From a virus (lineage: Duplodnaviria > Caudoviricetes), in IMG/VR virus record IMGVR_UViG_3300020048_000009, positions 32,001 through 96,000 of that record: a stretch of 64,000 nt of DNA. One strand, 5' to 3'. Both the position numbers and the translations under genes were made by a program. Numbering within the stretch: the first letter of the stretch is position 1; each line of letters starts with the position of its first letter. The notes under the pieces are model-generated. The model was given only the letters and a program-made list of their open reading frames with translations, did no database searches and had not been told where the DNA came from. This document shows positions 1-57,473 of this stretch, in pieces.

Positions 1-68
1 AGTATAATGCAATAAAAAATACAAGGTGTTAGGTGTACTTATATACCATATGAGCATACAATATTAAT

Positions 69-1361
69 ATGAAAATTTACAAAATTGGCGGATGTGTTAG
101 AGATAAATTAATGAGTAGAGTACCACATGATATTGATTATTGTGTGGTTGGTTCTACTATTGATGAAATGTTATCATTAGGTTTTAAACAAGTCGGTAAA
201 GATTTTCCTGTTTTTTTACATCCTAAAACAGGCGATGAATACGCATTAGCTAGAACAGAAAGAAAAACAGGGAATAAACATACTGATTTTGCTTTTGATT
301 TTGGTAAAAATATTAATATTGAAGATGATTGTTTTCGTAGAGATTTTACTATGAATTCTATTGCTGAAGATATTACAAATTCTACTATTATTGATATGTT
401 CGGCGGACAAAATGATATTAATAATAAAATAGTTAGACATATTAATGCTCAATATTTTATACAAGATCCTTTACGGATTTTAAGGGCTTTACGTTTTTGT
501 GTAACATTAAATTTTAACTTAGCTCCTGAAACTAAAATTTTATTAAAAATTATGGTTAAAGATGGAATGTTAAAAGATTTAACACCTGAAAGAATATGGA
601 ATGAAATTGATAAAGCTTTGCAGTGTAAAAACTTTTATACTTTCATAACTCTATTAGATGAAATTGGTGGGTTACCTGATATTTTTCCAGAATTAGAACA
701 TTTAAAATATGTACCAGAGCGTGATGATTATCATGGTGAAAAAAATACATTTAATCATATTCTTTTAACATTAATACATTTAAACAATAAATTTAATAAT
801 ATCGGTGAAATTAAATATTTAAATTTTGGGCTTTTAGCTCATGATTTAGGTAAAATATTAACACCTATCGCAGACTGGCCATCACATCCAAGTCATGAAG
901 ATTCTGGTGTGAGTGTTATTGAAAAATTATGTACACGTTTAAAAGTTCCTAATGATTATAAGAAGTTTGCAATATTAGCTTGTAAATATCATATGAAAAT
1001 TTCTAAATATTTTGATATGAATATTAGTAAACGGTATAATTTTATTACAGATGTAACTAATAATTTTAGAGATAAAAGTAATTTGTCATACATTTTTTCT
1101 ATATATTTTTATGATAAGGTTGGTCGTTTAAATTTTAATTTTGATTATACAGATTTTGCGGACAAAATGGCAAATGCGTATGAAATGTTTGATGTTATTT
1201 CTAGGACAAGTGCTGATATGTTCCCAGAATTATTAAAATTTAAAGGATCACAGTTTGGAAAATTATACAGAGATAAACGTATTGAATTTTACAGAAAACA
1301 AATAAAAAAGTATAAGGATAATGACAATGCTTCTAACACGCAGGATATTCGAGACGAATAA
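69..1361 (+). CDS. cca: CCA-adding tRNA nucleotidyltransferase with HD domain
   Basis: GGCVRD..DIDY, ARTERK, RRDFTMN, DPLRILR motifs; H..HD-type C-terminal domain. Confidence 0.95.
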   Translation: MKIYKIGGCVRDKLMSRVPHDIDYCVVGSTIDEMLSLGFKQVGKDFPVFLHPKTGDEYALARTERKTGNKHTDFAFDFGKNINIEDDCFRRDFTMNSIAEDITNSTIIDMFGGQNDINNKIVRHINAQYFIQDPLRILRALRFCVTLNFNLAPETKILLKIMVKDGMLKDLTPERIWNEIDKALQCKNFYTFITLLDEIGGLPDIFPELEHLKYVPERDDYHGEKNTFNHILLTLIHLNNKFNNIGEIKYLNFGLLAHDLGKILTPIADWPSHPSHEDSGVSVIEKLCTRLKVPNDYKKFAILACKYHMKISKYFDMNISKRYNFITDVTNNFRDKSNLSYIFSIYFYDKVGRLNFNFDYTDFADKMANAYEMFDVISRTSADMFPELLKFKGSQFGKLYRDKRIEFYRKQIKKYKDNDNASNTQDIRDE

Positions 1362-1680
1362 TATATTAATGTATAACATCAAGAAAGAAAGTGAAAGCTT
1401 TCTTGATGTTTTTCTAAAACTTAAAGATTCATATAATTTTACAGTTGCAGATTTTATTGTATTATTAGAAACTCATTTACTAATGAAAAACTATTCTAAT
1501 AAAAAAATTAAAAAGTTTTTTGATATAATAAATAAAAATACACAGTCTTATATTAATAATCTAATAGAAGTTGAAAAAGAACTTGTTAATACTGAACTAG
1601 GTCGGAAAAAAGAAATTAACGAATTAATCAAAAAAGAAAAAGAATTGGAAAAATTAGATAATGAAGAAGAAAATAACTGA
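1321..1680 (+). CDS. hypothetical coiled-coil protein
   Basis: ORF overlapping the cca end; phage-like codon usage. Confidence 0.6.
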   Translation: MTMLLTRRIFETNNILMYNIKKESESFLDVFLKLKDSYNFTVADFIVLLETHLLMKNYSNKKIKKFFDIINKNTQSYINNLIEVEKELVNTELGRKKEINELIKKEKELEKLDNEEENN

Positions 1681-1870
1681 AGAAGTTGGGATGACTACAG
1701 GTATTGTTACAGGTGGCAATACTGATGTTAACACAAATGGTATACTTGGACCTGGCAATTTCCAAATTCCTGGTGGTAAAAAACCCAAAGTTCTTAAACG
1801 TAAAGCTTTTGAATCTTCATATAAAAATATATGTGAAGGTATTAAAAAGAAAGTTATCAAGCCGGTATAA
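1661..1870 (+). CDS. small hypothetical protein
   Basis: ORF in operon; ITEE/FES motifs resemble late proteins. Confidence 0.6.
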   Translation: MKKKITEEVGMTTGIVTGGNTDVNTNGILGPGNFQIPGGKKPKVLKRKAFESSYKNICEGIKKKVIKPV

Positions 1871-1899
1871 TTTAAGTAATAAGTATAAGGAAAAGTAAC

Positions 1900-2073
1900 A
1901 TGGGTAAAATATTAGAAGATTTCACAAAAGAAAATAATATTAAAATAGAAGTTTCAGATTCTATATACCAAGATATGGAAAAATATCATGGTATGTCGCC
2001 TGATAAAATAGACGCCATACTTGTTGAAATGGCAAAAAACACACAAAAGGATGAAGTAACATGTCAAAAGTAA
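1900..2073 (+). CDS. small hypothetical protein (57 aa, not in ORF track)
   Basis: MGKILEDF...TCQK; AAGGA RBS upstream; fills operon gap. Confidence 0.55.
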   Translation: MGKILEDFTKENNIKIEVSDSIYQDMEKYHGMSPDKIDAILVEMAKNTQKDEVTCQK

Positions 2074-2615
2074 TAACGTATTCAGAAAAAGAAACAGACC
2101 TTAAAACACTAGCCGTTAAAAAAGGTAAACTTGGAAAAAAAAGATATTATATTCCACAAGAAACTGACGAGCTCGTAGTTTTATTTAAAGAACAGCTTAA
2201 TTTAATTAATGATAAAGCATTAGTAGATACACATAATATAAAATTCCAAGTCAATTATATATATCCAGCGATTAGTAAAACAGTATGGGCTCATATTTTT
2301 AAAGTAACGCCTTATATGAAGATGTTTACTGATCTTGATTATGTCGTAGAAGTAAGCGGTGATATTTGGGAAATGATTGATGATGAAATGAAAAAAATCC
2401 TCTTAGAGCATGAACTTGATCATGTCTGTATTACTGAAAAAGATGATGGAACACCTGTTTTAAAAACATTAAAGCACGATGTTCAAGACTTTAGAAGTAT
2501 TATTAGAAAATATGGCATAGATTGGACTGTTAAGAAAGACCTTATATCTGAACAGTATAAAGAGATTTTGCATGAGCGTAAGCAACAGGAAAAAATTGAT
2601 AGCAAAAAGGCTTAA
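2061..2615 (+). CDS. putative phage metallopeptidase
   Basis: LLEHELDH zinc motif followed by HDVQDF. Confidence 0.75.
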   Translation: MSKVITYSEKETDLKTLAVKKGKLGKKRYYIPQETDELVVLFKEQLNLINDKALVDTHNIKFQVNYIYPAISKTVWAHIFKVTPYMKMFTDLDYVVEVSGDIWEMIDDEMKKILLEHELDHVCITEKDDGTPVLKTLKHDVQDFRSIIRKYGIDWTVKKDLISEQYKEILHERKQQEKIDSKKA

Positions 2616-2621
2616 TATAAA

Positions 2622-3218
2622 ATGTCAATTGAATCAATAACTCCAACTAATTTTTCCGGCCTTTTTATTATCACGAATGAAATATTTCGTGATAATAGAG
2701 GCGTTTTTATTCAAAATTTTCAAAAAGAAGATTTTGATGAAAAACTATCAAAATATACAGATAAAAAATATGAGTTTGTCCAAGACAATATTTCCGTTTC
2801 CGCTGATAACGTTGTCAGAGGTTTACATTATCAGTTAAAGAAACCTCAAGCAAAATTGGTATCTGTTTTAAATGGTTCTATTATCGATGTTGTAGTTGAT
2901 ATTAGAAAAGACTCAAAAACTTTTGGCAAATATTTTATCTATCAATTATATGCTGGCAGTGCAGAGCAGATATTGATACCTGAAGGTTTTGCACATGGTT
3001 TTAGGTCTTTATATGATAATACAATTGTTTCATATAAAACAACCAACCCTTATTGCAATGGTGATGAATATGGCATCATTTATAATGATCCACATTTAAA
3101 TATTGATTGGACGCTTAGCGACACATATCCTATGTGTGATGGTGATAAATTTATAGTTTCTCCTAAAGATTTATCTTATAATGAATTAATATTCACTGAA
3201 CCCTCTAAATTGTTTTAA
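2622..3218 (+). CDS. rmlC: dTDP-4-dehydrorhamnose 3,5-epimerase
   Basis: DNRGVF, QDNISVS, RGLHYQ, VDIRKDS.TFG, GFAHGF. Confidence 0.95.
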   Translation: MSIESITPTNFSGLFIITNEIFRDNRGVFIQNFQKEDFDEKLSKYTDKKYEFVQDNISVSADNVVRGLHYQLKKPQAKLVSVLNGSIIDVVVDIRKDSKTFGKYFIYQLYAGSAEQILIPEGFAHGFRSLYDNTIVSYKTTNPYCNGDEYGIIYNDPHLNIDWTLSDTYPMCDGDKFIVSPKDLSYNELIFTEPSKLF

Positions 3219-3220
3219 TT

Positions 3221-3643
3221 ATGAATACTAAAGAAAATATAAAAGAATATAAAGTTCTAGAAAATGGCGATGAGCTAATTATTGATAATAATTTTAGATA
3301 CCATTTGTTTAGAAATGAAGAAGAATTGACTAAAGGTATTGAAGCTTTAAAAGCTCAATCATATCACAATAATTATTGGAAATATAGAGATCTTAATAAT
3401 TTTGAACATTTATTTGATACAAATGGCATAGAATTGACTAAAGACATTAAAACAATGTGGGTTGAAGCATATGCTAATGGGTATTGGAAATACATGACAA
3501 AAGAGGGATTTTGGCAATTATGTAATGATAAGAACGTATGTATTACTAAAGATCCTAGTATTTTCTCAATTACAGTGTTTCCAAATGGAGATTGGGAATA
3601 TAAATTAACAGAATGGGCCATTCCAATATATGTAAGGAAATGA
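3221..3643 (+). CDS. hypothetical protein
   Basis: ORF in operon. Confidence 0.6.
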   Translation: MNTKENIKEYKVLENGDELIIDNNFRYHLFRNEEELTKGIEALKAQSYHNNYWKYRDLNNFEHLFDTNGIELTKDIKTMWVEAYANGYWKYMTKEGFWQLCNDKNVCITKDPSIFSITVFPNGDWEYKLTEWAIPIYVRK

Positions 3644-3668
3644 TAATTTATTTTAATAAATAAATTAT

Positions 3669-4109
3669 ATGATAAAAGAAAAATCCTTATATAAAAAAAA
3701 TAAATTTCATATAGATTTCTGTAACATCGATATTATATTCTATATTATAGAAGAACAAAATTTTTTAGATTTTATACAAACGCAAAAAATTAATAATATC
3801 CTAATAAAAGAATATCTTAATGACACTGATACTCCTGATGAAATGAAGTCAGGAGCAGTTATAAATGCTAATAATACGTTGTATATATTAATAACTGCCT
3901 TTAAAGGTGAGTATCTTGATATAATGAATACTATTATTCATGAGTCTACGCATGCAACACAGGAAATTTTTAGAATAATAGGTAATGATAAGGTAACCGA
4001 AGATTTAGCTGAATCTTTTGCATATTTAAATAGTTATATTGCTACTAAGATTTTAAAAACTATTTTCAAAAAAGATTCTAAGGATAAACGGTTTTATATT
4101 AAAATCTAA
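3669..4109 (+). CDS. HExxH-motif protein (possible metalloprotease)
   Basis: IIHESTHA...ESFAYL; TAAATA promoter upstream. Confidence 0.6.
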   Translation: MIKEKSLYKKNKFHIDFCNIDIIFYIIEEQNFLDFIQTQKINNILIKEYLNDTDTPDEMKSGAVINANNTLYILITAFKGEYLDIMNTIIHESTHATQEIFRIIGNDKVTEDLAESFAYLNSYIATKILKTIFKKDSKDKRFYIKI

Positions 4110-4136
4110 TAAATAATATAAAAATTATCTATAAAT

Positions 4137-5183
4137 ATGCCATATAAAACCTCAAACGGCCTTTGGAAATGGGGCAATCTAGAAAAATCGTCAAAACAAG
4201 AGTTATGTCGATTAGTTTATGGTATTTGGAAAAAACAAGGTTCTGAAGGTAGTTTTTCAAAGTTTTGGCAAAGGGGTAAAGTATTAGAATCAATTTATGA
4301 TAATGTTTTAGATTCTATAAATGAATCAAGAGTTGATTTCGCTGAAAAAAAATTAAACCCTGATATTTGGTATAAAGAAGATGATCAATTTTTTCTTAAA
4401 CAAAATATTAAAGATGAATTGTTAAAGATTAAAGATAAATTTGAAAATATTTCTAAATATACAGTTGAAAGTATTCGTTTGGTTGGAAGTAATACATCAA
4501 CTCAATATAAAAAAGATAGTGACCTTGATTTTCATATAACAATAAATACTACCAGTTTAAAAGAAATTGAAAAATGCAGAAAATTAATTGTAGATAATAT
4601 TAAGGGTAAATATTACTATAAAAAATATCCATATGAAATTTATGTGCAAGAAAATATCTTTCAAGACTTAGCCAGTATAGGATGTTATGATGTACTCAAT
4701 GATACGTGGCTGGTTGGTCCGGATCTAGTCCCAAACTCGTTCAACCCATATATAGAGTTCATTGATATATTCAGCAAGGTGGAAGCAACCTGTAGCGAGT
4801 GTGATATCGAAATTGGAAAGCTGAAAAGAACAATTCAAGATTACAAAGCATTAAAAGAAGGTTTATCTAAAATAAGTTCTAATAAAAAAACAGAACTAAA
4901 AAAATTATTAGATAAAAAATTAAAGGATATTTTTGATACTGTTGATACTTTAACAGAATTAAAAGCTGAAATACGAGATGATAGAAAAGTTTCATCTACG
5001 CCTAAATCTGAAGCGGATGCAAAAAAATTAAGAAAAAATAAACAATGGCAAAAAGCAGATGCATCATTTAAAATGATTGCCAAATATGGTTATTTACAAT
5101 TAATTTCAGATTTAGAAATAATAAAAGATTCTAAAACAAGATTTTTAGATCGTGACATAAAAGACATTGAAAAAATAGTATAA
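4137..5183 (+). CDS. Pol-beta-superfamily nucleotidyltransferase-domain protein
   Basis: LVGSN..QY..DSDLDFH and downstream YEIY acidic strand. Confidence 0.75.
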   Translation: MPYKTSNGLWKWGNLEKSSKQELCRLVYGIWKKQGSEGSFSKFWQRGKVLESIYDNVLDSINESRVDFAEKKLNPDIWYKEDDQFFLKQNIKDELLKIKDKFENISKYTVESIRLVGSNTSTQYKKDSDLDFHITINTTSLKEIEKCRKLIVDNIKGKYYYKKYPYEIYVQENIFQDLASIGCYDVLNDTWLVGPDLVPNSFNPYIEFIDIFSKVEATCSECDIEIGKLKRTIQDYKALKEGLSKISSNKKTELKKLLDKKLKDIFDTVDTLTELKAEIRDDRKVSSTPKSEADAKKLRKNKQWQKADASFKMIAKYGYLQLISDLEIIKDSKTRFLDRDIKDIEKIV

Positions 5184-5228
5184 CATTTTGTTCGAAAAGT
5201 ATAATGGATATACGTATAATTTTTTATA

Positions 5229-7136
5229 ATGTCAACACAAAATCAAAATAATATCGAAAAACCGGATTTAACTAATGTTTATCCAGGGTATAGAAATATC
5301 TCTTACCATGTTACTAATGGTAAAGGTGAAATTGTATTGGATGGATGGGATAAAGATAAAGTTCCTAAAACTTTTTATTTTCCACATTTAAGCAAAGTTG
5401 TATATGAAACAAAAGAAAAAACAGATACAAAAACATTATTTGATACATACGCACAAACTAGATATTTTAATAATAGTTACGAGCGAAAAAAATGGTTAGC
5501 GTCTATTGATAAAAATATTAATATCATTGAGGCGTTTAAACCTGAACAAGAATTTTTAGTTGATAACTTTTACGATAAAGTTTATGATAATGATTTTAAC
5601 GTTTTAGATTTACGTACACATTTCATAGATATTGAAGTTGCAATAGAAACGGAATTCTGTAAACCTACAGAAGCCAAATATCCTATTAATATTATAACGG
5701 TATATGATACATACTTAAAGAAATATTATAGTTGGGCATTGGATATGTCCATCACTAATACTATTGCAAATAAAAATATAGAATTAAGAAAATTTAATTC
5801 TGAACAGATTATGTTGCGTGATTTTATTGAATGGTTTTCTGTTAATAGACCTGATATTATTTCTGGTTGGAATATTTATTTTTTCGATATGCCGTATTTA
5901 CTTAAAAGAGTTGAGAATGTTTTAGGTAAAACATATTGTGAAAAGTTTTCATCAATTAAGCGTTATTGGTTCGCAGAGAAAAAAGACAAATTCAATAGTG
6001 CATATGTTAATATTCCCGGTGTTTCACAATTAGACTTATTAATATTGTATAGAGATAAGTTTAAAGTTAATCCTTCATTGGATGGCGGCTATAACTTAGA
6101 CAATGTTGCATTTGAAGAATTAGGTGAAAATAAAATAAAATATGAAGGTTCAATGCGTAATTTTTATAAGAATAATTTTCAAAGATTTTGGGAATATAAT
6201 ATAAAAGACGTTGAACTTTGTGTTAAAATTGAAGCCAAAAGATCACTAATTCCTTGTGCTAGACGTATTACTACTCTTGGTTTATGTCAATACGAACAAA
6301 TTTATGGTTCTATTAATTATATTATAGGCTCGGTTTGTATTTATTCTAAAAATCATCATAATAAAATTTTTAGATCTTATACTGATTATGATAATATTGG
6401 TGAAGAGTTTGAGGGTGCATACGTATTCCCAACAATGGCAGCGTTTTATAAAAATGGATGTGCATGTATTGACGTAAACTCACTATATCCCAATACAATG
6501 ATAGCTTTAAATCTATCGCCAGAAACCAAAATTGGGCAACTAATAGATAATCTAAATGGTACTTTTAATATTGTATTAGATGATGGTACTATAAAAATTA
6601 TTACAGCAGAGGTAAGAGCTAAATTATTAGAAACCAAATGTATTTTAAGTAAGAACGATACTTTATTTTATAAGCATTCTGTTAAAAAAGGTATTCTATC
6701 TGGTTGGTGTAAATATTATTTTGATAGACGTAAACATTATCAAAAGTTAGCAAAAGCCGCGGGTAAAAAAATAGAAGAACTTGAAAATCAATTAGTTATT
6801 AAAAAGCAAGAAGGTTCAGACTATAGTGCTATTGATAAAGAATTAGCAGAACAAATTAAATATAAAATGATTTATCATACTACACAGTATGCTATTAAAA
6901 TCATGTTAAACAGTGCATATGGTATGACAGGTACTAAATTTAGTCCTATTTATGATATAAATTTAGCACAAAGTATTACTTTAAATGGACAATTTGTAAA
7001 TAAATCTGTTGCAACATATCTTAAAAAGAAGTTTAATGAAAAATATAAATGTTCTGAAGATTTTGAAGTTACAATTAGCGGTGATACTGACAGTGTAGCA
7101 GGTGATACAATTTTAAATATAAGAATAGGTAAATAA
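5229..7136 (+). CDS. DNA polymerase family B, N-terminal part (exonuclease, motifs A and B, start of motif C), ending in a split intein fragment
   Basis: DIEV, GWN..FDMPY, YNIKDV, DVNSLYP, KIMLNSAYG, GDTDS; no thumb domain. Confidence 0.95.
   Translation: MSTQNQNNIEKPDLTNVYPGYRNISYHVTNGKGEIVLDGWDKDKVPKTFYFPHLSKVVYETKEKTDTKTLFDTYAQTRYFNNSYERKKWLASIDKNINIIEAFKPEQEFLVDNFYDKVYDNDFNVLDLRTHFIDIEVAIETEFCKPTEAKYPINIITVYDTYLKKYYSWALDMSITNTIANKNIELRKFNSEQIMLRDFIEWFSVNRPDIISGWNIYFFDMPYLLKRVENVLGKTYCEKFSSIKRYWFAEKKDKFNSAYVNIPGVSQLDLLILYRDKFKVNPSLDGGYNLDNVAFEELGENKIKYEGSMRNFYKNNFQRFWEYNIKDVELCVKIEAKRSLIPCARRITTLGLCQYEQIYGSINYIIGSVCIYSKNHHNKIFRSYTDYDNIGEEFEGAYVFPTMAAFYKNGCACIDVNSLYPNTMIALNLSPETKIGQLIDNLNGTFNIVLDDGTIKIITAEVRAKLLETKCILSKNDTLFYKHSVKKGILSGWCKYYFDRRKHYQKLAKAAGKKIEELENQLVIKKQEGSDYSAIDKELAEQIKYKMIYHTTQYAIKIMLNSAYGMTGTKFSPIYDINLAQSITLNGQFVNKSVATYLKKKFNEKYKCSEDFEVTISGDTDSVAGDTILNIRIGK
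7092..7133 (+). mobile_element. N-fragment (14 aa) of an atypically split, Ser1 intein at the PolB pol-c site
   Basis: GDTD|SVAGDTILNIRIGK-stop matches intein block A. Confidence 0.85.
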
Positions 7137-7138
7137 AT

Positions 7139-7348
7139 ATGAATAATGATAAAGCTCAAAAAATTTATACAATAAAAAGCGTTAACAATAAAAGCGTTAT
7201 TGTTTATGTAAATGGCGGTCAATATATAACTACAATAAGGCATGACCATACACAGGCTCTTATAAATGATACAGTTATTACTATAACTACTCCTAGAGGA
7301 AAAACAGTTCAATATTCAGTTTATGGTGCCTTTTTACGACAATTTTAA
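7139..7348 (+). CDS. small hypothetical protein
   Basis: ORF directly after polB; lacks intein C-terminal HN motif. Confidence 0.65.
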   Translation: MNNDKAQKIYTIKSVNNKSVIVYVNGGQYITTIRHDHTQALINDTVITITTPRGKTVQYSVYGAFLRQF

Positions 7349-7380
7349 TAAATAAAATAAAACATATAAAAGGTTGAATT

Positions 7381-7725
7381 ATGTCTGAAAGAATGTTTGT
7401 TACTGGATTTACGGGTGTTTATAACACTAATGATAATATATTATCTGCAGTTGTTAATAATATTAAAACTATTGCGGGAAGCGCTATTATCCCCACAAGC
7501 GCTAATATCGGATGTTTAATTAAAGGTTTTTCGGCTGCATCTAGTGGCGATTTTTTATTAAAATTATCAGATTATTCTACTATAAAAGCAACTGTTGATG
7601 ATGGTGTTTATTCTGTAGATGTTGGCTTATATACAGATAATATAAGCGTTCCTATTGATCAATTAACACTATTAACTGGAAATAATCTTACCCTAGATTT
7701 TAATGTATATTATATCCCACTATAA
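7381..7725 (+). CDS. hypothetical protein (late promoter)
   Basis: TAAATA and AAGG upstream. Confidence 0.65.
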   Translation: MSERMFVTGFTGVYNTNDNILSAVVNNIKTIAGSAIIPTSANIGCLIKGFSAASSGDFLLKLSDYSTIKATVDDGVYSVDVGLYTDNISVPIDQLTLLTGNNLTLDFNVYYIPL

Positions 7726-7731
7726 GATATA

Positions 7732-8217
7732 TTAAAGATTTTTTAAATCCTTATCGGTTATAATTACAAAATTATAACCTTTTTCTTTTGCCATTTTTTT
7801 AGCGGCTGTCCATTTTGACATATTTTTAATATATGCCTGAGATTCTAGGATTTTAGTGGGAGCCATTGTAACGTTAACATCATTTTTTGATTTAACTTCT
7901 ATCCAAACCTTTTGTGTACCATTTTGGGTTTTTATTGTCGCAACAAAATCAATATAATATTTTCGCTTAATGGGTTGTGCTCCACGATCTAATAACAACG
8001 GGCTCTTGTCCCAATATTCTATTGCAAAAGGTTCATAACTCCAATTTATAACATTTTGGTTATTATCTAAATATACCATTGTTTTTAATTCAAGTTTTGA
8101 TTTATAATGAGGTAATGCGTTACTTTTATATTTTTCTTTATTCCTAGGACTATATACACCGTGTAATGATTTATATTTACCTGATTTTTTTAAATTATTT
8201 AATGATACAAACCCCAT
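7732..8217 (-). CDS. T4 gp4-like head completion nuclease (TnsA-like fold)
   Basis: YKSKLE..TMVYLD.N.NVINWSYEP..I.Y...RKYYIDF...IEVK. Confidence 0.85.
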   Translation of the reverse strand: MGFVSLNNLKKSGKYKSLHGVYSPRNKEKYKSNALPHYKSKLELKTMVYLDNNQNVINWSYEPFAIEYWDKSPLLLDRGAQPIKRKYYIDFVATIKTQNGTQKVWIEVKSKNDVNVTMAPTKILESQAYIKNMSKWTAAKKMAKEKGYNFVIITDKDLKNL

Positions 8218-8313
8218 AATTAAGTCCTTTTACATATAAAAACATACAAACATTTTAAATTATTTATTAAAAAATGTAAAATTTAAATATAAAAATAGAA
8301 CGTAAAAGGATTT

Positions 8314-8718
8314 ATGAAAGCTAATAATACAACAACAACATATCTATATTATCTTGATGGACAATTAATGTATACATTACCATTAGTTAAAGAAAATGAA
8401 ACAGCATATTCAGTAGAATCGCCGGTTATATGTACAGTACAATATTTAAATGAAGAACACACAGAAAAACAAATTATTCTTTATACCAATCCTGAAATTT
8501 TAAAAGAAGAACGCTTTTTCTTAGCCGGTTTAATCGCTGCCATAAAAGAACAAAATGAAGAAATAATTATACAAGATGATAAAGATGAAAATATGATGTA
8601 TAAAGTTGTATGTAAAAAAGATGGATTATATTTTAATGATAAACTAGTTAATCCAATGTATAAAATAGATTTAATAGAAGCTAATAAATTCTTTGCAAAA
8701 GAAATTGTAATAAAATGA
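8314..8718 (+). CDS. hypothetical protein
   Basis: ORF with AAAGGA RBS. Confidence 0.6.
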   Translation: MKANNTTTTYLYYLDGQLMYTLPLVKENETAYSVESPVICTVQYLNEEHTEKQIILYTNPEILKEERFFLAGLIAAIKEQNEEIIIQDDKDENMMYKVVCKKDGLYFNDKLVNPMYKIDLIEANKFFAKEIVIK

Positions 8719-9401
8719 AGATAGAATTAAAAGATAATGAATGGATAATAACCGATACTACTATTAATTTAACCAGTAATATCGAAAGATCCATTAGTAT
8801 ATGTGTTTCAAATAAAAACAAGTGCACTCTTAATTCAGTAGATTTATCATTAGGTGTTGGAAATTTTTATTATTTTATAGATAGATTTTTTAGAAATTCT
8901 TTTCCGCCTGGTGCTGCACTACATGAAGTGTTAACATTAACACAAAAGAGATTTATTAGAGATGTAGATTTACGTAGTAATATTCTTATTAATTCTGATA
9001 GAAACCAGGGAAAAACTTATATTATGGCAATGTATTGTCTATATAGTCTAATTTGTGATTATTATAATGAAAATAGTAAAGGTACTGATAATATTGTTTT
9101 CATTACACATACTGATGCGTCTAAACAAAATGTACGAAATTATTTTAATAACATTTTAATGCAAAATGATTTATTTAAATATTTTAAAATGGAACAAGAT
9201 AGAAGCAAAATTAAAATGGGAAGTAACGCTGTTCATTTTGTTACTTATAGTTGTAATAATGCAATAAAGGGTATGGGTTCTAAAATATTAGTATGTGATG
9301 AATTACAACAAGCAACCCAGCAACAACAAGATAATATGCTTGCTGCTATTGTACCAACACTATATTACAATAAAAATTCCAAGATTATAAGTAGTATTTA
9401 A
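8715..9401 (+). CDS. terminase-large-subunit-like ATPase domain only
   Basis: Q motif, RNQGKT Walker A, IKG...ILVCDE Walker B; ends at SKIISSI. Confidence 0.65.
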   Translation: MKIELKDNEWIITDTTINLTSNIERSISICVSNKNKCTLNSVDLSLGVGNFYYFIDRFFRNSFPPGAALHEVLTLTQKRFIRDVDLRSNILINSDRNQGKTYIMAMYCLYSLICDYYNENSKGTDNIVFITHTDASKQNVRNYFNNILMQNDLFKYFKMEQDRSKIKMGSNAVHFVTYSCNNAIKGMGSKILVCDELQQATQQQQDNMLAAIVPTLYYNKNSKIISSI

Positions 9402-10225
9402 AATCTACTACCTGGTAAATATTCTAATTTCTTTTCTACACTAAAGCTTGTATCAAAATATTTCATAAGTGTATTATATATAGAATTTAAATCCGCATGT
9501 GGGAATACCATTTTATATTTGTTGGCATATTCTATAAATTTATTAATAATTGATGATGCTTGTTCTTTTGTAATATCGGAATGAATATTAAAAAATAAGC
9601 TATTAATTATTTTTACTAGTTTATTTCTAGTGACTATAAAATTATTATCTATTCCATAGTCTAATAATAATAGATATGCGTTATATCCATTAATAGTAAA
9701 GTCACTGATAAGAGCACTTATAAAATCTTCTGTATTAACTGGTTTATATTTTAGGTTTTTATATTTTGCATCTTCGTCTAAATTTTTACAAGCGTTATAA
9801 TTTCCTGTAATATTTACTATACAGGGAATATTCATTTTATTTTTTACTCTGTCTGGAATTATTATTAAAGTAATTATTCCATTATAATTTACGTCTACTC
9901 TATCAGGTAATACCTTTTTACAATCTAACATATTTTGATTATAATTTTTCCAATAGTTTGATATTTCGCTTTGTATACTTTTAGCTTCTTCAGGACGTAA
10001 TCTTGTATTTAAATTAATATCACATTTCCATGTTCCATCTGAATTATTACGGGACCATTTTAAAATATAATTTTTACCGTTAAAGTCCATACTGTTTATA
10101 AAACCAAAAGTTTCTATTGCTCCTGTATATGCTTCTAATATTTTATCATCAGGATTAAACGCTGAAACTTTTGGTTTAATATAATTATCTATTGGAAAAT
10201 CTGGACTATATGTTAGCCATTTCAT
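9398..10225 (-). CDS. hypothetical protein (late promoter)
   Basis: 275 aa ORF; GATAAATA upstream on minus strand. Confidence 0.65.
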   Translation of the reverse strand: MKWLTYSPDFPIDNYIKPKVSAFNPDDKILEAYTGAIETFGFINSMDFNGKNYILKWSRNNSDGTWKCDINLNTRLRPEEAKSIQSEISNYWKNYNQNMLDCKKVLPDRVDVNYNGIITLIIIPDRVKNKMNIPCIVNITGNYNACKNLDEDAKYKNLKYKPVNTEDFISALISDFTINGYNAYLLLLDYGIDNNFIVTRNKLVKIINSLFFNIHSDITKEQASSIINKFIEYANKYKMVFPHADLNSIYNTLMKYFDTSFSVEKKLEYLPGSRF

Positions 10226-50965: not shown

Positions 50966-51205
50966 ATAGGTTACGGAAAATTATTTTCAAAAATATTTCA
51001 TTTTTATTTTTGGAAATGATAAATAAAATAAAATTAAGGATAAAGCAAATGTTTACGAACACATATAGAGGCAATGATAAAGGCAATACAGAACTATGTA
51101 TTACTAATGCCGGGGCTTTATCCAATCTTACAGCAGTAAATTTCCCAGAACGAATAAAGCCCGTAACCCAAGTTTAATTTAAACGGTAAAATGTTTTGGG
51201 TTACT

Positions 51206-51284
51206 ACTAGGAGAGGTTAAGCCTAGTGCGTTCTATAAAATTTACTGTGTCTAATGCTAAACACGAAATTTTGTAGAGGTCCTC
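51206..51284 (+). ncRNA. pistol-like ribozyme lacking canonical P1
   Basis: ACTAGG/CCTAGT, P2 GAGG/CCTC, UUAAG, GCGU, 12-bp P3, GG^U. Confidence 0.65.
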
Positions 51285-51393
51285 AAAAGAAATGAGCAAT
51301 TATTTCTTTAGATTTGATCTGTGACAATTGAATAGAAAACTTTAAATTATTTTTTGGTGGTTTTTATAACTCAAAAAACTACCCAACTTTTAT

Positions 51394-51470
51394 GAGCTCG
51401 TAGAGGAAATGGTTAACTCATGTGGTTTTCATCCACAAGATTGCCGGTTCGAATCCGGTCGGGCTTACCA
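51394..51470 (+). tRNA. tRNA-Glu(TTC)
   Basis: cloverleaf, loop TTTTCAT, CCA. Confidence 0.9.
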
Positions 51471-51561
51471 TATAAGCATGACGACTAGACTAGCAATGCT
51501 TTCAGCTTATAGCTAAACTAGTGACACGGCGGAGAGCACGTCGGACAATTTTATAATTTAT

Positions 51562-51647
51562 GGATAGGTGCTCCTGAATGGTAAGGGGACGGTCTTGAAA
51601 ACCGTAGGCTAACCCCACTGCACGTTCGATTCGTGTCCTATCCTCCA
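51562..51647 (+). tRNA. tRNA-Ser(TGA)
   Basis: loop CTTGAAA, long V-arm, CCA. Confidence 0.88.
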
Positions 51648-51694
51648 ATTTGTGGCGCGTCACGGTGTGTGTATAAGTCGCTTCGATTTATTAT

Positions 51695-51772
51695 GGGGCC
51701 ATAACTCAGTCCGGCTAGAGTGTCTCCCTTGCACGGAGAAAGTCGGGGGTTCAAATCCCTCTGGCTCCACCA
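51695..51772 (+). tRNA. tRNA-Ala(TGC)
   Basis: G3-U70, loop CTTGCAC. Confidence 0.92.
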
Positions 51773-51876
51773 ATTTGGCTGCATTCCGGATGCAGTCGGA
51801 TCAATTCACCTGATGTACTAGAGCGAGTCAGGAATTATGAAACAGTAAAATTCTGTATCGGTCTGCCAATTTATGT

Positions 51877-51952
51877 AGAACGTTCGCGTAGTGGTTAGCG
51901 CACTAGACTGTCGATCTGGATTTCACGGGTTCGATTCCCGTACGTTCTGCCA
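51877..51952 (+). tRNA. tRNA-Asp(GTC)
   Basis: loop CTGTCGA, G73. Confidence 0.9.
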
Positions 51953-51962
51953 TTTTAATTTA

Positions 51963-52039
51963 CGGAGTGTGGAGGCAATTGGCTGCCCACGTGCCTTGGA
52001 CGCATGGTTATGTCGGATCGTTCCCGACCACTCCGACCA
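51963..52039 (+). tRNA. tRNA-Pro(TGG)
   Basis: loop CTTGGAC; atypical T-loop. Confidence 0.85.
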
Positions 52040-52052
52040 ATTTTTCTAGAAA

Positions 52053-52127
52053 GCCAACTTGACTGAATGGTTAAGTACCTCATTTGTAATGAGACCCATA
52101 ACGGTTCGATCCCGTTAGTTGGCTCCA
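52053..52127 (+). tRNA. tRNA-Thr(TGT)
   Basis: loop TTTGTAA. Confidence 0.88.
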
Positions 52128-52220
52128 TATTTTATATACGAAAGTAATATATTCTAAAACCGGTACTTTCTTTTCAAATATGTATACCGGCTTTAATAAA
52201 TAAAATTAAAGGAATATATT

Positions 52221-52946
52221 ATGAATACAGTAATTTGTCCAATATGTGGAAAAGAATACAAACAATTAATAGCACAACATATTTTTAAACACGGTTTGAC
52301 TATTGAAGAATTTAAACTTAAATTTCCAGATTTTTATTTAGGTAGTCCGGGTATTGAAAGTACTAGAAAAGAAAAAATGGTACTTCAATATGAAAAAGAT
52401 AATATACGATGTAAACATTGTAATAAATTAATAACATCACCAAATAGAAAACATAGAATCTTTTGTAGTACTTTATGTAAAGCTACTTATTATTCTTTTA
52501 ACAAAGAGCTTGTTCAAACAAAAGGAAAACATTTTAAAAAAATCTGTTGTGCATGTAATAAAGAATATAAAGCCTTTAGAGATAATTCTAAATTTTGTTC
52601 TAATAAATGTCAACAAGAATATATTAATGTTCAAAAAATTAAAGAATGGAAAGACGCCACAGAACAGGGAAAACCTTTTCCCTATAGAAAATGGATAAGA
52701 CATTATCTTTTTAAAAAATATGATAACAAATGCTGTAAATGTGGGTGGAGTAAGATTAATCCTTTTACAGGAAATGTTCCTTTAGAACTTGAACATATTG
52801 ATGGTAATTCAAATAACAATAAAGAAGAAAATTTAGAATTGTTATGTCCCTGTTGTCATGCCTTAACTTCCACATATAAGGGTGCAAATAGAGGTAATGG
52901 AAGATTCTCTAGAAGACAAAGATACCAAGAAGGTAAATCTTATTAA
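52221..52946 (+). CDS. HNH homing endonuclease with Cys-rich N-terminus
   Basis: CCKCGW...LELEHIDGN..NN..ENL.LLCPCCH. Confidence 0.9.
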   Translation: MNTVICPICGKEYKQLIAQHIFKHGLTIEEFKLKFPDFYLGSPGIESTRKEKMVLQYEKDNIRCKHCNKLITSPNRKHRIFCSTLCKATYYSFNKELVQTKGKHFKKICCACNKEYKAFRDNSKFCSNKCQQEYINVQKIKEWKDATEQGKPFPYRKWIRHYLFKKYDNKCCKCGWSKINPFTGNVPLELEHIDGNSNNNKEENLELLCPCCHALTSTYKGANRGNGRFSRRQRYQEGKSY

Positions 52947-52957
52947 TAAAATTTAAT

Positions 52958-53031
52958 GCGTCTGTAGCTCAATGGTCGAGCCCGTCCTTGCCAAGGATGT
53001 TATACGAGTTCAATTCTCGTCAGATGCTCCA
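52958..53031 (+). tRNA. tRNA-Gly(GCC)
   Basis: loop TTGCCAA. Confidence 0.88.
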
Positions 53032-53041
53032 ATTTAAAATG

Positions 53042-53113
53042 TTTAATATGAGCTAATGGTAAGCTTCCAGGTTTAAAGACCCAGAGTATATAGGTTCAAC
53101 TCCTATTATTAGA
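53042..53113 (+). pseudogene. degenerate tRNA-like sequence
   Basis: D- and T-arm present, broken anticodon arm, no CCA. Confidence 0.45.
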
Positions 53114-53120
53114 TATTTAT

Positions 53121-53194
53121 GCGTTTGTAACTCAATTGGCAGAGTGCTGGGCTTCCAACCCGGATATACGGGATCATACCCCGTCAGATGCTCC
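53121..53194 (+). tRNA. tRNA-Gly(TCC)
   Basis: loop CTTCCAA. Confidence 0.88.
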
Positions 53195-53200
53195 ATTTAA

Positions 53201-53275
53201 AGCGATGTTAGCAAAATGGTTATGCGGCGGTCTGCAAAACCGCTTACATGTGTTCAATTCACATACATTGCTCCA
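53201..53275 (+). tRNA. tRNA-Cys(GCA)
   Basis: loop CTGCAAA, U73. Confidence 0.9.
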
Positions 53276-53285
53276 TTTTATTTAT

Positions 53286-53361
53286 GCTCTCTTATTTCAG
53301 TGGCTAGAATGCTTCCTTTACACGGAAGAGGTCAGGAGTTCGAATCTCTTAGGGAGTACCA
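53286..53361 (+). tRNA. tRNA-Val(TAC)
   Basis: loop TTTACAC. Confidence 0.9.
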
Positions 53362-53367
53362 TTTTTT

Positions 53368-53444
53368 CGAAGTATAACTCAGTTGGTTAGAGTACCTGTC
53401 TGATACACAGAATGTCGGTGGTTCGAATCCATCTACTTCGACCA
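53368..53444 (+). tRNA. tRNA-Ile(GAT)
   Basis: loop CTGATAC. Confidence 0.9.
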
Positions 53445-53451
53445 TTTTATT

Positions 53452-53535
53452 GGGACTGTGGCGTAATGGCAGACGCGCTGGTTTTAGACACCAGTGGAGA
53501 AATCCGTGAAGGTTCAAGTCCTTTCAGTCCCACCA
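53452..53535 (+). tRNA. tRNA-Leu(TAG)
   Basis: loop TTTAGAC, long V-arm. Confidence 0.92.
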
Positions 53536-53646
53536 GTTTTGTTTCATTAAAGCATATAATATCAGTGTATAAAAGCCAATGAATATACTACTATATTAAT
53601 ATCAATTACGCAATTGATACTGTTCTTTGAATAACAATTTTTAAAT

Positions 53647-53735
53647 CGCAGGGTGGCGTAATTGGCAGCCGCAGCGGACTTAAAATCCGCTGGGTGGTAA
53701 CACCCGTGAGGGTTCGAGTCCCTCCCTTGCGACCA
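53647..53735 (+). tRNA. tRNA-Leu(TAA)
   Basis: loop CTTAAAA, long V-arm. Confidence 0.92.
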
Positions 53736-53769
53736 TTGATCCTTAGTTAGAAGATTGTGTTCTGTCAGC

Positions 53770-53869
53770 CCATCAAGATAGACGTTTGAGATCATGCCTC
53801 TTCTGGAACAAGTATATAAACTTTAAGCCTTTGAGCGGACAGGTTTATATTAAGTGAAATCCTTGATGG
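53770..53869 (+). ncRNA. three-way-junction RNA copy 2
   Basis: CCATCAAG-AT-AGACG ... GAAC ... GTGAA-AT-C-CTTGATGG. Confidence 0.6.
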
Positions 53870-53994
53870 TCGGCGGTGTATTCCAGTCTTTTGTTTTAGT
53901 ATGATATTAATGTTTTCGTTACCTGACCGTTGGACTAAGTGCACTTCGTAAGAAGGCTCCAATCAATCAGCTTCTCCATTAACCAGCAGCATAT

Positions 53995-54071
53995 AGGCGT
54001 GTAGCTCAGCTGGTTAGAGCGGGATCCTTATAAGGTCTAGGTCGCTGGTTCAACTCCAGCCACGCCTACCA
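53995..54071 (+). tRNA. tRNA-Ile(TAT)
   Basis: loop CTTATAA. Confidence 0.88.
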
Positions 54072-54088
54072 TTTTTTAGAAAGTAATT

Positions 54089-54238
54089 ATGCTTTATTAT
54101 TGGACAAGAGTTTATAATACAGGTGCTGCCCATTATTGGGAAGTAGAAAGTGAAGAAGCTTTACTTATCGCTGCAAAAGAAAAGTATGGTGAATCACTTT
54201 TTGATTATGGAATGACAACTCAAAAGAAAACAAAGTAA
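54089..54238 (+). CDS. small hypothetical protein (49 aa, not in ORF track)
   Basis: MLYYWTRVY...; fills gap between tRNAs. Confidence 0.5.
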   Translation: MLYYWTRVYNTGAAHYWEVESEEALLIAAKEKYGESLFDYGMTTQKKTK

Positions 54239-54250
54239 ACAATTTTTAAT

Positions 54251-54332
54251 GGGAATGTATCTCCCCCGCCTTCTAAGCGGACGTTAAAAGAGTAATTGGA
54301 GTATGCAGGTTCGATCCCTGTCTTTCCCGCCA
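54251..54332 (+). tRNA. atypical tRNA-Arg(TCT)-like RNA without canonical D-arm
   Basis: acceptor stem, CCGC-CTTCTAA-GCGG, T-arm, GCCA. Confidence 0.6.
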
Positions 54333-54417
54333 TTTTAGCTAAGAGTAGTAAATATTTAATTTACTTATATATTTAAGCTGCGCTTTTAATAAATAAAATT
54401 AAGGGTATAACTTAAAT

Positions 54418-54924
54418 ATGAAAAATAAATGTCATAAATGTAATGTAGATATTCCAAACAGGGTTAAAATAGATAACTGTTGGAAAACAATTAACCATAG
54501 AAAATTTTGTTTAATCTGTTCACCGTGGGGTAAACATAATACTAAAAGCGTGGATCCTTCTAAAAGAACGCTTTCAGAAAAAGAAAGACATTCCTGGAAA
54601 AATTTAACAGATAAACAAAAAACATGTCATAAAACATCACAACATAAGAGAGCCGTTAAGCGTAAGGTTGAACTTATTAATATGCGAGGTGGGAAGTGTG
54701 AAAGATGTGGTTATGATAAATGTATTGATGTATTTCATTTTCATCATATAGATCCATCGTTAAAAACCATGAACATGGGATTAAATTCTCTATGGTGTAA
54801 ATCATGGGAAAAGATTTTACAGGAATTTGAAAATTGTAAAGTATATTGTTCTAATTGCCACATGGAAGTGCATTATGAATTAAAAAATCCTGATAATAAA
54901 CAATGTACTTTAATTTCAAAATAA
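54418..54924 (+). CDS. HNH endonuclease
   Basis: GGKCERCGYDKC..VFHFHH.DP...C.VYCSNCH.E.H. Confidence 0.88.
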   Translation: MKNKCHKCNVDIPNRVKIDNCWKTINHRKFCLICSPWGKHNTKSVDPSKRTLSEKERHSWKNLTDKQKTCHKTSQHKRAVKRKVELINMRGGKCERCGYDKCIDVFHFHHIDPSLKTMNMGLNSLWCKSWEKILQEFENCKVYCSNCHMEVHYELKNPDNKQCTLISK

Positions 54925-55029
54925 TATGATTAGCCAGTGTATAAAAAGAAGAGATTATCATATTATATATCTATCAAGTATGTACTTGAGCATGTTCTTT
55001 GACAATTAATAGCAAATGATTTTTTTAAT

Positions 55030-55114
55030 GGAAGCGTGGCCGAACGGCTAGGCATCGGACTTTTAATCCGAGGGAGAAATCCTAACGCAGGTTCGACCCC
55101 TGTCGCTTCTACCA
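55030..55114 (+). tRNA. tRNA with Lys(TTT) anticodon on a long-variable-arm body
   Basis: loop CTTTTAA; V-arm GGGAGAAATCCT. Confidence 0.8.
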
Positions 55115-55132
55115 TCTTTTTAGTTTTCAAAT

Positions 55133-55206
55133 TGTCCCATAGTGTAATGGCAGCACAGCACCCTTTGACGGTGTTTGTATTGGTTCAAGTCCAGTTGGGA
55201 CAACCA
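55133..55206 (+). tRNA. tRNA-Gln(TTG)
   Basis: loop CTTTGAC. Confidence 0.9.
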
Positions 55207-55208
55207 AT

Positions 55209-55282
55209 ATTCCCATGTTGTAAAGGATGCATGCGGCGCTACGAACGCTTCGGTTGGAGTTCGAATCTCTATGGGAATACCA
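55209..55282 (+). tRNA. tRNA-Arg(ACG)
   Basis: loop CTACGAA. Confidence 0.85.
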
Positions 55283-55287
55283 TTTTA

Positions 55288-55346
55288 AAGACGCAAACAG
55301 CAATTCAAATAAAAATTCACTGTTAATGAAAAAAAAAACGCGTCTT
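55288..55346 (+). ncRNA. small pseudoknot-like RNA with an Asn-anticodon-like segment
   Basis: AAGACGC/GCGTCTT stem; ACAG/CTGT; CTGTTAA. Confidence 0.45.
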
Positions 55347-55354
55347 GTTTTTAT

Positions 55355-55429
55355 AGTAGAGTAGGCAAGTGGTAATCCGCCTCCCTGTTAAGGAGGACAG
55401 CGCTGGTTCGATCCCAGCCTCTACTGCCA
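55355..55429 (+). tRNA. tRNA-Asn(GTT)
   Basis: loop CTGTTAA, G73. Confidence 0.88.
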
Positions 55430-55433
55430 CTTT

Positions 55434-55558
55434 GGGAACAGATGGTTAGCGCCATTTGGCATATTTATTCATGTAGTATGCCTAACCCATTTATATTTTT
55501 GATAAATAAAATAGAGGTTACGCTAAGAACCTCTTTAAAATAAAGGTAAAATAATATG
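55434..55558 (+). ncRNA. kissing-loop endonuclease-leader cassette copy B
   Basis: H1 loop TTAGCG (55446-51) complementary to H3 loop CGCTAA (55521-26). Confidence 0.75.
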
Positions 55559-56236
55559 ATTAATAAATTAGATGAATCATGGAAGCAAGTAAACGGTTTA
55601 TATAAATGTCCAATATGTAGTAAAGAGTATTCTAAAAAAGGAATTTGTTCGCATATCTTTAGATCACATACAAAAGACGGTAAATATAATTCTTTTAAAG
55701 ATAATAACAGATTATATACTTCATCGTGGAATAAAGGTTTAATAAAAGAAACAGATCTTAGAATCAAGAAATCTGGTGAGAAACTTAAAGAAAGTCTTAA
55801 CTCTGGTAAAGTAATACCACCACAAACAGGAAAACCTATTGCTCCTGAAATAAAAGCTAAAATATCCAATACGATGAAGATTGCTCATAAAGAAGGAAGA
55901 GCGTGGAATATTGGAAAGTCTAGATGGAATAACAAAGCTTCATATCCAGAAGAATTCTTTATGAAGGTTATTGAAAATGAATTTGAGGATAAGAATTATA
56001 TAAGAGAATTTAATGTTGGTATTTATTCTATAGATTTTGCATGGACCGATAAAAAGTTAGCTATAGAAATAGACGGACAACAGCATAAACGATTTGAAGA
56101 ATATAAACAGAGAGATCTTCGGAAAGATGAATGTTTATTAGAGAATGGATGGAAAGTTCTAAGAATTTTATGGATTGATATGTATAAGGATCCACACAAG
56201 TGGATTAAAATTGCTAAAGATTTTATACATAATTAA
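55556..56236 (+). CDS. free-standing endonuclease (zinc finger, NUMOD3, DUF559-like)
   Basis: CPIC..H...H; K.KISNTMK; YSIDFAW..KLAIEIDG.QH...D..L..NGWKVLRI. Confidence 0.88.
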   Translation: MINKLDESWKQVNGLYKCPICSKEYSKKGICSHIFRSHTKDGKYNSFKDNNRLYTSSWNKGLIKETDLRIKKSGEKLKESLNSGKVIPPQTGKPIAPEIKAKISNTMKIAHKEGRAWNIGKSRWNNKASYPEEFFMKVIENEFEDKNYIREFNVGIYSIDFAWTDKKLAIEIDGQQHKRFEEYKQRDLRKDECLLENGWKVLRILWIDMYKDPHKWIKIAKDFIHN

Positions 56237-56249
56237 GAATTTTATTAAT

Positions 56250-56325
56250 GCGATTGTAGCTCAGTAGGCAGAGCGTCGGACTCTTAATCCGAAGCGCGTG
56301 GGATCATAGCCCTCCAGTCGTACCA
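56250..56325 (+). tRNA. tRNA-Lys(CTT)
   Basis: loop CTCTTAA. Confidence 0.85.
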
Positions 56326-56363
56326 TTTTGATGTACAAGATCAGATAGACATGAGAATTTTAT

Positions 56364-56437
56364 TGCGCGGTTGAGGAGAGGCCCCTCTGCAGGCTCATAA
56401 CCTGCCTACGCCGGTTCGAATCCGGCCTGCGCAACCA
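56364..56437 (+). tRNA. tRNA-Met/Ile2(CAT)
   Basis: loop CTCATAA. Confidence 0.85.
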
Positions 56438-56446
56438 ATTTAACAA

Positions 56447-56597
56447 CACGGCGTGAGGAAAGAACTTGTTCTATGATTCTTAATTCGATTCTAGTAAGAT
56501 AGTACTGTCTGAACGAGGATGTTATTAAGCGGAGAACAGAAATCCTACCGGAAACATGTCCGGAAATCGCAGGTATCGAATCCTGTCGCCGTAACCA
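56447..56597 (+). ncRNA. tRNA-fMet-like RNA with about 80-nt D-loop insertion
   Basis: C1:A72 acceptor, AGGA/TCCT D-stem, CCGGA-AACATG-TCCGG, T-arm, ACCA. Confidence 0.6.
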
Positions 56598-56603
56598 ATT
56601 TTA

Positions 56604-56679
56604 GGAGTTTTGTTGTAGATGGTTCGCAAAACGGTCTGAAAAACCGAAGGATAGGGTTCGATCCCCTGAAACTCCACCA
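56604..56679 (+). tRNA. tRNA-Phe(GAA)
   Basis: loop CTGAAAA. Confidence 0.88.
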
Positions 56680-56690
56680 TTTTATTTTCT

Positions 56691-56778
56691 GGTAGTTTAT
56701 TCCGTAGGTAGTCTCGGGGCGCACTGTAAATGCGCTGGCTAATACCCTAAGGTAGTGCAACTCTATCAACTACCACCA
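56691..56778 (+). tRNA. tRNA-Tyr(GTA)
   Basis: loop CTGTAAA, long V-arm. Confidence 0.82.
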
Positions 56779-56789
56779 GCTTTAAATAA

Positions 56790-56923
56790 GGACAGATGGT
56801 TAGCGCCATTTGGATGTTTTTCATATGACACGCCTAACTTATTTAATTATTTTTTCATATTTTTTGATAAATAAAATAGAGGTTACGCTAAGAACCTCTT
56901 AAAAATAAAGGTAAAATAATATG
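56790..56923 (+). ncRNA. kissing-loop endonuclease-leader cassette copy C
   Basis: TTAGCG (56800-05) / CGCTAA (56886-91). Confidence 0.75.
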
Positions 56924-57457: not shown

Positions 57458-57473
57458 AGATTCCACCATTTTA

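Follow-up and report, generated by a model that had tools for sequence, protein, structure and literature searches.

A large freshwater phage carries the two halves of its family-B DNA polymerase, each with a putative fragment of a PolB16-type split intein, in unlinked genes

The split inteins of cyanobacterial DnaE and Nanoarchaeum equitans PolB are found in cellular rather than phage genes and are split at the canonical position, with N-terminal fragments (IntN) of ~100 amino acids (aa) and C-terminal fragments (IntC) of ~35 aa. The DnaE intein begins with a cysteine (Cys1), and both its host protein family and its insertion site differ from those of the phage PolB intein discussed herein. 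As outlined in PMC2677866, each of these systems rebuilds a replicative polymerase from the products of two unlinked genes by protein trans-splicing, and in this respect the phage locus would resemble them. A closer counterpart is the PolB16 OarG intein from a sheep gut metagenome, which has an IntN of 15 aa and an IntC of 168 aa, uses serine at the first intein position (Ser1) and at the first C-extein position (Ser+1), and follows the N-extein sequence SGDTD (Pasch et al. 2023, PMC10189870). PolB16 undergoes trans-splicing in vitro, for which the NX-motif histidine, preceded by Arg or Lys, is essential (PMC10189870). Aes123 PolB1, a phage-derived cysteine-less intein, was described separately from PolB16 (PMC10189870), and the split site of its short-IntN CL version was moved artificially (PMC13014065). 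According to a 2026 paper (PMC13014065), no natural cysteine-less atypically split intein other than PolB16 is known, and the 15-aa IntN of PolB16 is a record.

The locus described herein lies in a stretch of 64,000 nucleotides (the window), which comprises bases 32,001-96,000 of the 211,678-base IMG/VR record IMGVR_UViG_3300020048_000009 (G000; 29.8% G+C; 84% complete by CheckV). A 635-aa open reading frame (ORF) in this window encodes a family-B polymerase that ends shortly after the catalytic GDTD of motif C (Table 1). Pfam recognizes an exonuclease domain (PF03104) in this ORF, and the polymerase model PF00136 is matched over positions 33-253 only of its 453 positions. Searches of phage genomes with tblastn gave ~29% identity to the gp43-type polymerases of T4-like cyanophages and a pelagiphage, and all of these alignments stop at query residue ~623, which corresponds to DTDS of motif C. 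The exonuclease domain and motifs A, B and C are present in this N-half, and palm and thumb in the C-half described below, as in the T4-type gp43 layout. The next ORF after the polB stop begins at 7139, only 2 bases on. The initial annotation had read the tail that follows DTD in motif C as intein block A with serine as its first residue and had counted only 14 aa for the N-fragment. The tail does align with block A of contiguous inteins, and its length is as proposed.

Table 1. Coordinates of the polymerase halves, the putative intein fragments and neighboring genes. Positions are those of the window unless a contig is named; a slash marks the predicted splice junction.
Feature	Coordinates	Strand	Description
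N-precursor ORF, 635-aa family-B polymerase	5229..7136	+	End ...EVTISGDTD/SVAGDTILNIRIGK-TAA
N-extein, PolB (gp43-like) exonuclease domain plus palm/fingers through motif C	5229..7091	+	Residues 1-621, ending ISGDTD; Pfam and T4-like matches; collinear with unsplit relatives
Motif C GDTD, -4 to -1 relative to the splice site	7080..7091	+	Same N-extein as characterized PolB16 (SGDTD)
Putative IntN, 14 aa, SVAGDTILNIRIGK	7092..7133	+	Ser1 nucleophile and block A; zero cysteine
TAA stop closing the N-precursor	7134..7136	+	Unchanged in an independent lake-water contig
C-precursor, 439-aa ORF (P0267)	L006:9989-11308; G001 ~12,211-13,530	-	159-aa putative IntC plus 280-aa C-extein
348-aa ORF immediately upstream of polB	4137-5183	+	Weak nucleotidyltransferase (poly(A)-polymerase-like palm) matches, below Pfam cut-offs
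161-aa ORF 600 bases downstream of polB	7732-8217	-	Pfam TnsA-like endonuclease N-terminal domain
614-aa UvsX/RecA-like ORF, ~15-17 kb before the window start	G000 14,868-16,712 (L113:1869-3713)	+	Contiguous Cys1 intein in the P-loop, ...GESG/C...AAHN/SGKS

The short tail is neither an assembly artefact nor a chance sequence. A 20.3-kb contig from ERR12084946, a separate lake-water study from 2023, is 97.7% identical to the window at the nucleotide level and keeps the ORF, the tail and the stop. The initial annotation had named an assembly break or a frameshift as possible sources of error, and over window positions 6600-7800 this contig carries 24 substitutions but zero indels, with zero changes in 7080-7136. 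A Logan contig of SRR7760395 shows 0 mismatches to the window over 7,908 bases; this sample may be the source of the record, and its identical contig is therefore not independent. Among the public runs that contain this DNA, none from RNA was found, and two further runs cover only small shares of the stretch. Furthermore, dozens of PolB relatives in the protein collection, 624-733 aa in length, end 12-26 residues past GDTD. The relatives retrieved have 36 different C-terminal tails (12-26 aa) between them, which share the pattern S-[VI]-x-G-[DE]-[TS]-x-[LI]-x-[IV] after GDTD. Unsplit relatives such as P0012 (886 aa; ~50% identity) have GDTD-S-x-F-[LI]-N-[IL] at the tail position. One relative, P0021, ends GDTD/TLASGDTVYIKRIN and might be a Thr1 variant of the short IntN, and another N-fragment, P0015 (1079 aa), carries an additional N-terminal extension of ~440 aa.

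Several neighboring genes are also conserved. The nucleotidyltransferase-like gene before polB is syntenic in all three close relatives, and the ORF with the TnsA-like domain likewise keeps its position in relatives. We considered the latter as a free-standing homing endonuclease and dropped this assignment, since among PHROGs it is closest to T4 gp4-type head-completion proteins ('head closure').

We found neither a PolB C-half nor an intein C-fragment in the window, as the initial annotation had stated, or in the whole 211,678-base record. For this purpose, tblastn was run with the C-halves of two phages and 15 closer relatives, and a custom HMM was run against six-frame ORFs; the best score was no better than E 0.025. 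The Pfam model PF14890 (Intein_splicing) likewise has zero matches in this record. Elsewhere, when the C-half of P0012 was used to search the protein collection, proteins of ~435 aa were revealed in which an extension of ~150 aa, ending ...VL[IV]HN, precedes S-Q-F-[IL]-N and the PolB C-half. A profile search over 1.8 billion representatives returned further partners in two forms, one with a long IntC of ~136-260 aa (atypical split) and one with a short IntC of ~40-50 aa (canonical split). In a scan of viral contigs, we encountered one partner gene on IMGVR_UViG_3300020048_000142 (G001, 62,427 bases), with 54% identity to the query. This partner has its own Met, and its putative IntC ends ...FYANDILVHN/SQFINIEPL. 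The initial annotation had proposed searching the rest of the genome for an ORF with intein blocks B-G, ending HN/S and followed by PolB palm and thumb, and the 439-aa P0267 is such an ORF in the same phage genome. A synteny route through the complete relative G002, where the partner lies upstream of a clamp-loader-like gene, was abandoned when the G000 homologue of that gene (~190 kb) was seen to have an unrelated 472-aa ORF upstream.

Evidence that both halves belong to one genome comes from contigs that span the two records. By looking up a tail-fibre-like protein at the right end of G001, we found the Logan contig SRR7760395_753, which reads G000 9,890..1 (100%), then 18 bases, then G001 62,427..51,003 (100%). 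Because this contig joins them with 18 bases between, G001 and G000 are adjacent pieces of one phage genome, with a sum of 62,427 + 18 + 211,678 = 274,123 bases. For both the N-fragment protein P0346 and the partner P0267, the longest contig on record has 274,159 bases. The ENA contig of this length, ERZ27262921:k141_74535, carries the partner at ~12.2-13.5 kb, and this stretch agrees with G001 at all but 1 of 21,296 bases. The partner gene and the N-fragment gene (G000 37,229-39,136) are therefore ~86 kb apart and divergently oriented, in agreement with the initial annotation, which had the halves unlinked. The CheckV completeness values of 84% for G000 and 26% for G001 also fit two pieces of one genome of ~274 kb. 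When the right end of G000 was joined directly to the left end of G001, no continuous reading frame was obtained, and we therefore left the circle unclosed. No bridge that would close the genome was found at the left end of the ENA contig, and an exact-pattern scan of metagenome contigs with the left end of G000 gave no match in a set from which records of its own genome were possibly excluded.

The two genes occupy different surroundings. The N-half lies in a replication-gene cluster, and the C-half lies where nucleotide-metabolism genes border T4-type portal and head genes, with a thymidylate-kinase-like gene on one side and the T4-type portal gene on the other. The C-half gene closes a run of nucleotide-metabolism genes (NrdD, dUTPase, DHH phosphoesterase, thymidylate-kinase-like; L103/L114, G001 ~1-23 kb), its start codon overlaps the stop of its upstream neighbor, and it is followed directly by the genes for the T4-type portal, prohead protease and major capsid protein. 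Neither G000 nor G001 yielded a family-A polymerase, and no second PolB C-half was found in G000.

The insertion point lies within motif C of PolB, between GDTD and S, such that the N-precursor reads ...SGDTD/S and the C-precursor reads ...HN/SQFINI. An alignment of 25 split N-fragments revealed that G618, D619, T620, D621 and S622 are invariant and that G625 is nearly so. Similarly, in 31 aligned partners, H55 (with R54 before it), T84, D86, H87, Y139, D140, H148, N153, H158 and N159 are invariant, as is S160 (Ser+1, the first C-extein residue; 31/31). These IntC positions belong to the NX motif, block B (TxxH), block F and block G (His-Asn), and the Ser1-specific NX histidine preceded by Arg or Lys is present as R54-H55. 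Thus, judging from the alignments, all of the predicted class-1 splicing residues are in place, with Ser1 and Ser+1 and no catalytic Cys. The initial annotation had called the intein cysteine-less, which is true of the catalytic positions and of the N-fragment but not of the C-fragment, where there are four cysteines, all at non-catalytic positions. Together, IntN and IntC align end to end with contiguous inteins of the same site, and the break separates block A from the I-x-x-L-[YW] strand that comes after it. When the two exteins are joined in silico, the virtual spliced product (901 aa) is gap-free at the junction relative to unsplit relatives and restores GDTDSQFINI, with identities of 41-49% in the N part and 35-44% in the C part.

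Structural databases point to the same family. The best PDB matches of the IntC are the 8cpn and 8cpo entries for the 'PolB16 intein' (the single sequence matches 8cpn_A at E 2.6e-17, the family profile at 6.6e-47), and a profile of the C-extein matches residues 642-890 of the RB69 polymerase (E 8e-16). On the partner, PF14890 yields only 14.7 bits (E 0.027), under its curated cut-off of 35.8 bits, and relatives yield 21-26 bits; the Pfam PolB model has no match to the C-half. Given these misses, both assignments are based on homology to profiles and PDB entries and not on curated thresholds. PF14890 is poorly suited to this Ser1 clade, and we consider the intein assignment to be settled by the PDB homology.

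On these grounds we assign the pair to the PolB16 type, that is, a predicted class 1 intein with Ser1 and Ser+1 that is split after the second beta-strand, all sequence features of this type having been found. Like PolB16 (8cpn/8cpo), it resides in a PolB host at SGDTD/S and would be split right after the second beta-strand, and it shares Ser1 and Ser+1, the NX R-H, the block B TxxH and the terminal HN. It differs in the lengths of IntN (14 versus 15 aa) and IntC (159 versus 168 aa) and in an IntC sequence that has clearly diverged (a gapped match of 66.6 bits over 163 residues). Moreover, the source here is a freshwater phage of ~274 kb in which the arrangement is resolved (86 kb, opposite strands). 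The initial annotation was right that a Ser1 PolB intein with an IntN of ~15 aa is known, but the origin in T4-like phages that it gave does not apply to PolB16 OarG, which is from a sheep gut metagenome (PMC10189870).

Both halves also appear to be maintained together. They are present in three samples, namely SRR7760395, ERR12084946 (P0001 and P0366) and SRR24319152 (P0002 and P0269), and the neighboring genes of each half are kept in all three. In SRR24319152 the halves diverge in step, with P0002 at 86% and P0269 at 85% identity. By the method of Nei-Gojobori, dN/dS relative to this 85% relative is 0.16 for the IntC and 0.065 for the C-extein, and the value for the N-extein relative to the 97.7% nucleotide-identical relative is 0.03. 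The IntC is thus under purifying selection.

A predicted complex of N-precursor residues 585-635 and partner residues 1-175, for which a separate alignment was supplied for each chain, supports docking of IntN and IntC. Its score is 0.75 versus 0.36 for the best control, where the mark used is reached by 58/80 solved complexes and 2/110 mismatched pairs; because the structure of the homologous PolB16 has already been solved (8cpn), this pass may reflect likeness to it. The runs have at least 61% of contacts in common, with a partner pLDDT of at least 72. The predicted interface is formed by N-precursor residues 620-635 and IntC residues 1-8, 36-40, 54-55, 81-88, 136-141 and 150-160.

It is therefore very probable, in our estimation, that the window encodes the N-precursor (PolB residues 1-621 plus the 14-aa IntN) of a polymerase that is trans-spliced with the 439-aa C-precursor. 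We infer the splicing chemistry and its occurrence in infected cells from the sequences, the presence of both genes in one genome, their conservation and homology, and the supportive model. After translation, the 14-residue IntN would dock onto the IntC as beta-strands and thereby complete the HINT fold. Ser1 would then attack the D621-S622 peptide bond to form an oxyester, presumably helped by the NX histidine H55 and by block-B residues T84..H87. The N-extein would be passed to Ser+1 (S160), cyclisation of N159 would free the intein, and an O-to-N shift would yield a seamless 901-aa polymerase that reads ...GDTD-SQFINI... and matches unsplit relatives.

Perhaps the two pieces assemble non-covalently instead, with the intein fragments acting as a docking module that no longer splices. 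A precedent for this exists in T4-like phages, where a two-gene gp43 without an intein occurs. Specifically, Petrov and Karam, as cited in PMC2677866, described a T4-type PolB made from two genes in Aeromonas T4-like phages, which is similar to the arrangement in the lake phage except that the Aeromonas halves lack an intein, lie within 2-3 kb of each other and presumably assemble non-covalently. Because that split gp43 works as non-covalent pieces, covalent joining in the lake phage is not a logical requirement, and the complex model displays docking rather than chemistry. However, residues with a role in chemistry only (Ser1, the NX His, the block-B TxxH, the terminal HN and Ser+1) are invariant across 25-31 diverged members, the IntC is under purifying selection, and the homologous PolB16 intein does splice (PMC10189870). 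A docking module that has lost its chemistry is thus improbable.

We give almost no weight to the idea of a polymerase gene that is truncated and dead, or of an ORF created by an assembly error or a frameshift, whose tail would be a chance sequence or a decaying remnant. The lack of a C-half in the 64-kb window and the 211-kb record would be explained by such an event, but the same ORF and stop recur in the independent lake-water assembly, the 36 distinct tails follow one pattern, and a matching partner is present in the same genome. Furthermore, the low N-extein dN/dS and the lack of any other replicative polymerase among those sought are at odds with a dead gene. It is just as implausible that a mobile insertion, such as a group I intron or a free-standing endonuclease cassette, interrupts a gene that is completed locally by RNA splicing or read-through. 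Relatives G003 and G004 do carry a homing-endonuclease gene between same-strand halves, yet even in these phages both halves bear intein fragments. In the lake phage, only unrelated small ORFs and, on the other strand, the gp4-like head-completion gene lie past the polB stop, and the C-half, with its own Met and a full IntC, is 86 kb off on the opposite strand.

Split inteins of this kind are not confined to the lake phage. Our searches yielded ~60 clusters (90% identity) of matching IntC partners in addition to the 36 distinct IntN tails, and the tails of 12-13 aa in relatives such as P0034, P0036, P0002 and P0003 are below the published 15-aa record. By sequence, PolB16 belongs to a large metagenomic family, and the lake phage pair is a new natural member of it rather than a new kind of system. 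What is new here is the resolved unlinked arrangement in a large freshwater phage, along with the size and diversity of the natural family. The PolB16 family is used in protein engineering, and these natural IntN tails and IntC partners are candidates from which improved tools for semisynthetic ligation might be made.

Other forms of the intein also occur at this PolB site. Contiguous inteins of ~165 aa are present there in P0063, P0133, P0137 and P0056, and PolB is unsplit in G005 and P0012. Canonical splits were found in P0135-P0143, P0151 and others (~320 aa), with an IntC of ~40-50 aa that ends FFANDILVHN/S. Because canonical splits also occur at this site, one insertion point holds contiguous, canonical-split and atypical-split forms. 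In G003 and G004 the two halves share a strand, with the partner ~2 kb downstream, and they are separated by a single ORF of 575-626 aa (L052:4907-6787, L034:5077-6804) that matches PHROG 3339 'homing endonuclease' (E 6e-118) and also has a weak restriction-endonuclease-like Pfam match. This layout corresponds to the 'fractured gene' stage of Dassa et al. 2009 (PMC2677866). G002, a genome of 291 kb that CheckV rates as 100% complete, has its halves on opposite strands with 97 kb between them.

The 86-kb separation in the lake phage fits step IV of the scheme in PMC2677866, in which the parts are moved to separate loci by dislocation after loss of the endonuclease. Unlike the 'fractured genes' described there, the lake phage has no endonuclease gene between or beside the halves, and its split site is not the canonical endonuclease-insertion position but an atypical, N-terminal one. 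The forms at this one site (intein-free, contiguous mini-intein, canonical split, atypical split with an endonuclease gene, and atypical split that is dislocated) illustrate the gene-breaking model of Dassa et al. 2009 (PMC2677866). With regard to phage biology, the lake phage provides a resolved case of a large phage in which the only polymerase found consists of two genes 86 kb apart, whose products are probably joined by protein trans-splicing.

It is tempting to speculate that the location of the halves in separate transcription units serves as a timing gate on replication, such that full-length polymerase is formed only once both units are expressed. We regard this proposal as doubtful, and the separate suggestion that some IntN of 12-13 aa splice faster than PolB16 is tentative to the same degree.

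The lake phage genome carries a second intein, which interrupts the P-loop of a UvsX/RecA-like protein (Table 1). This intein has a weak HTH_3 match inside and no endonuclease domain. It is contiguous and begins with Cys1, and its chemistry differs from that of the PolB intein.
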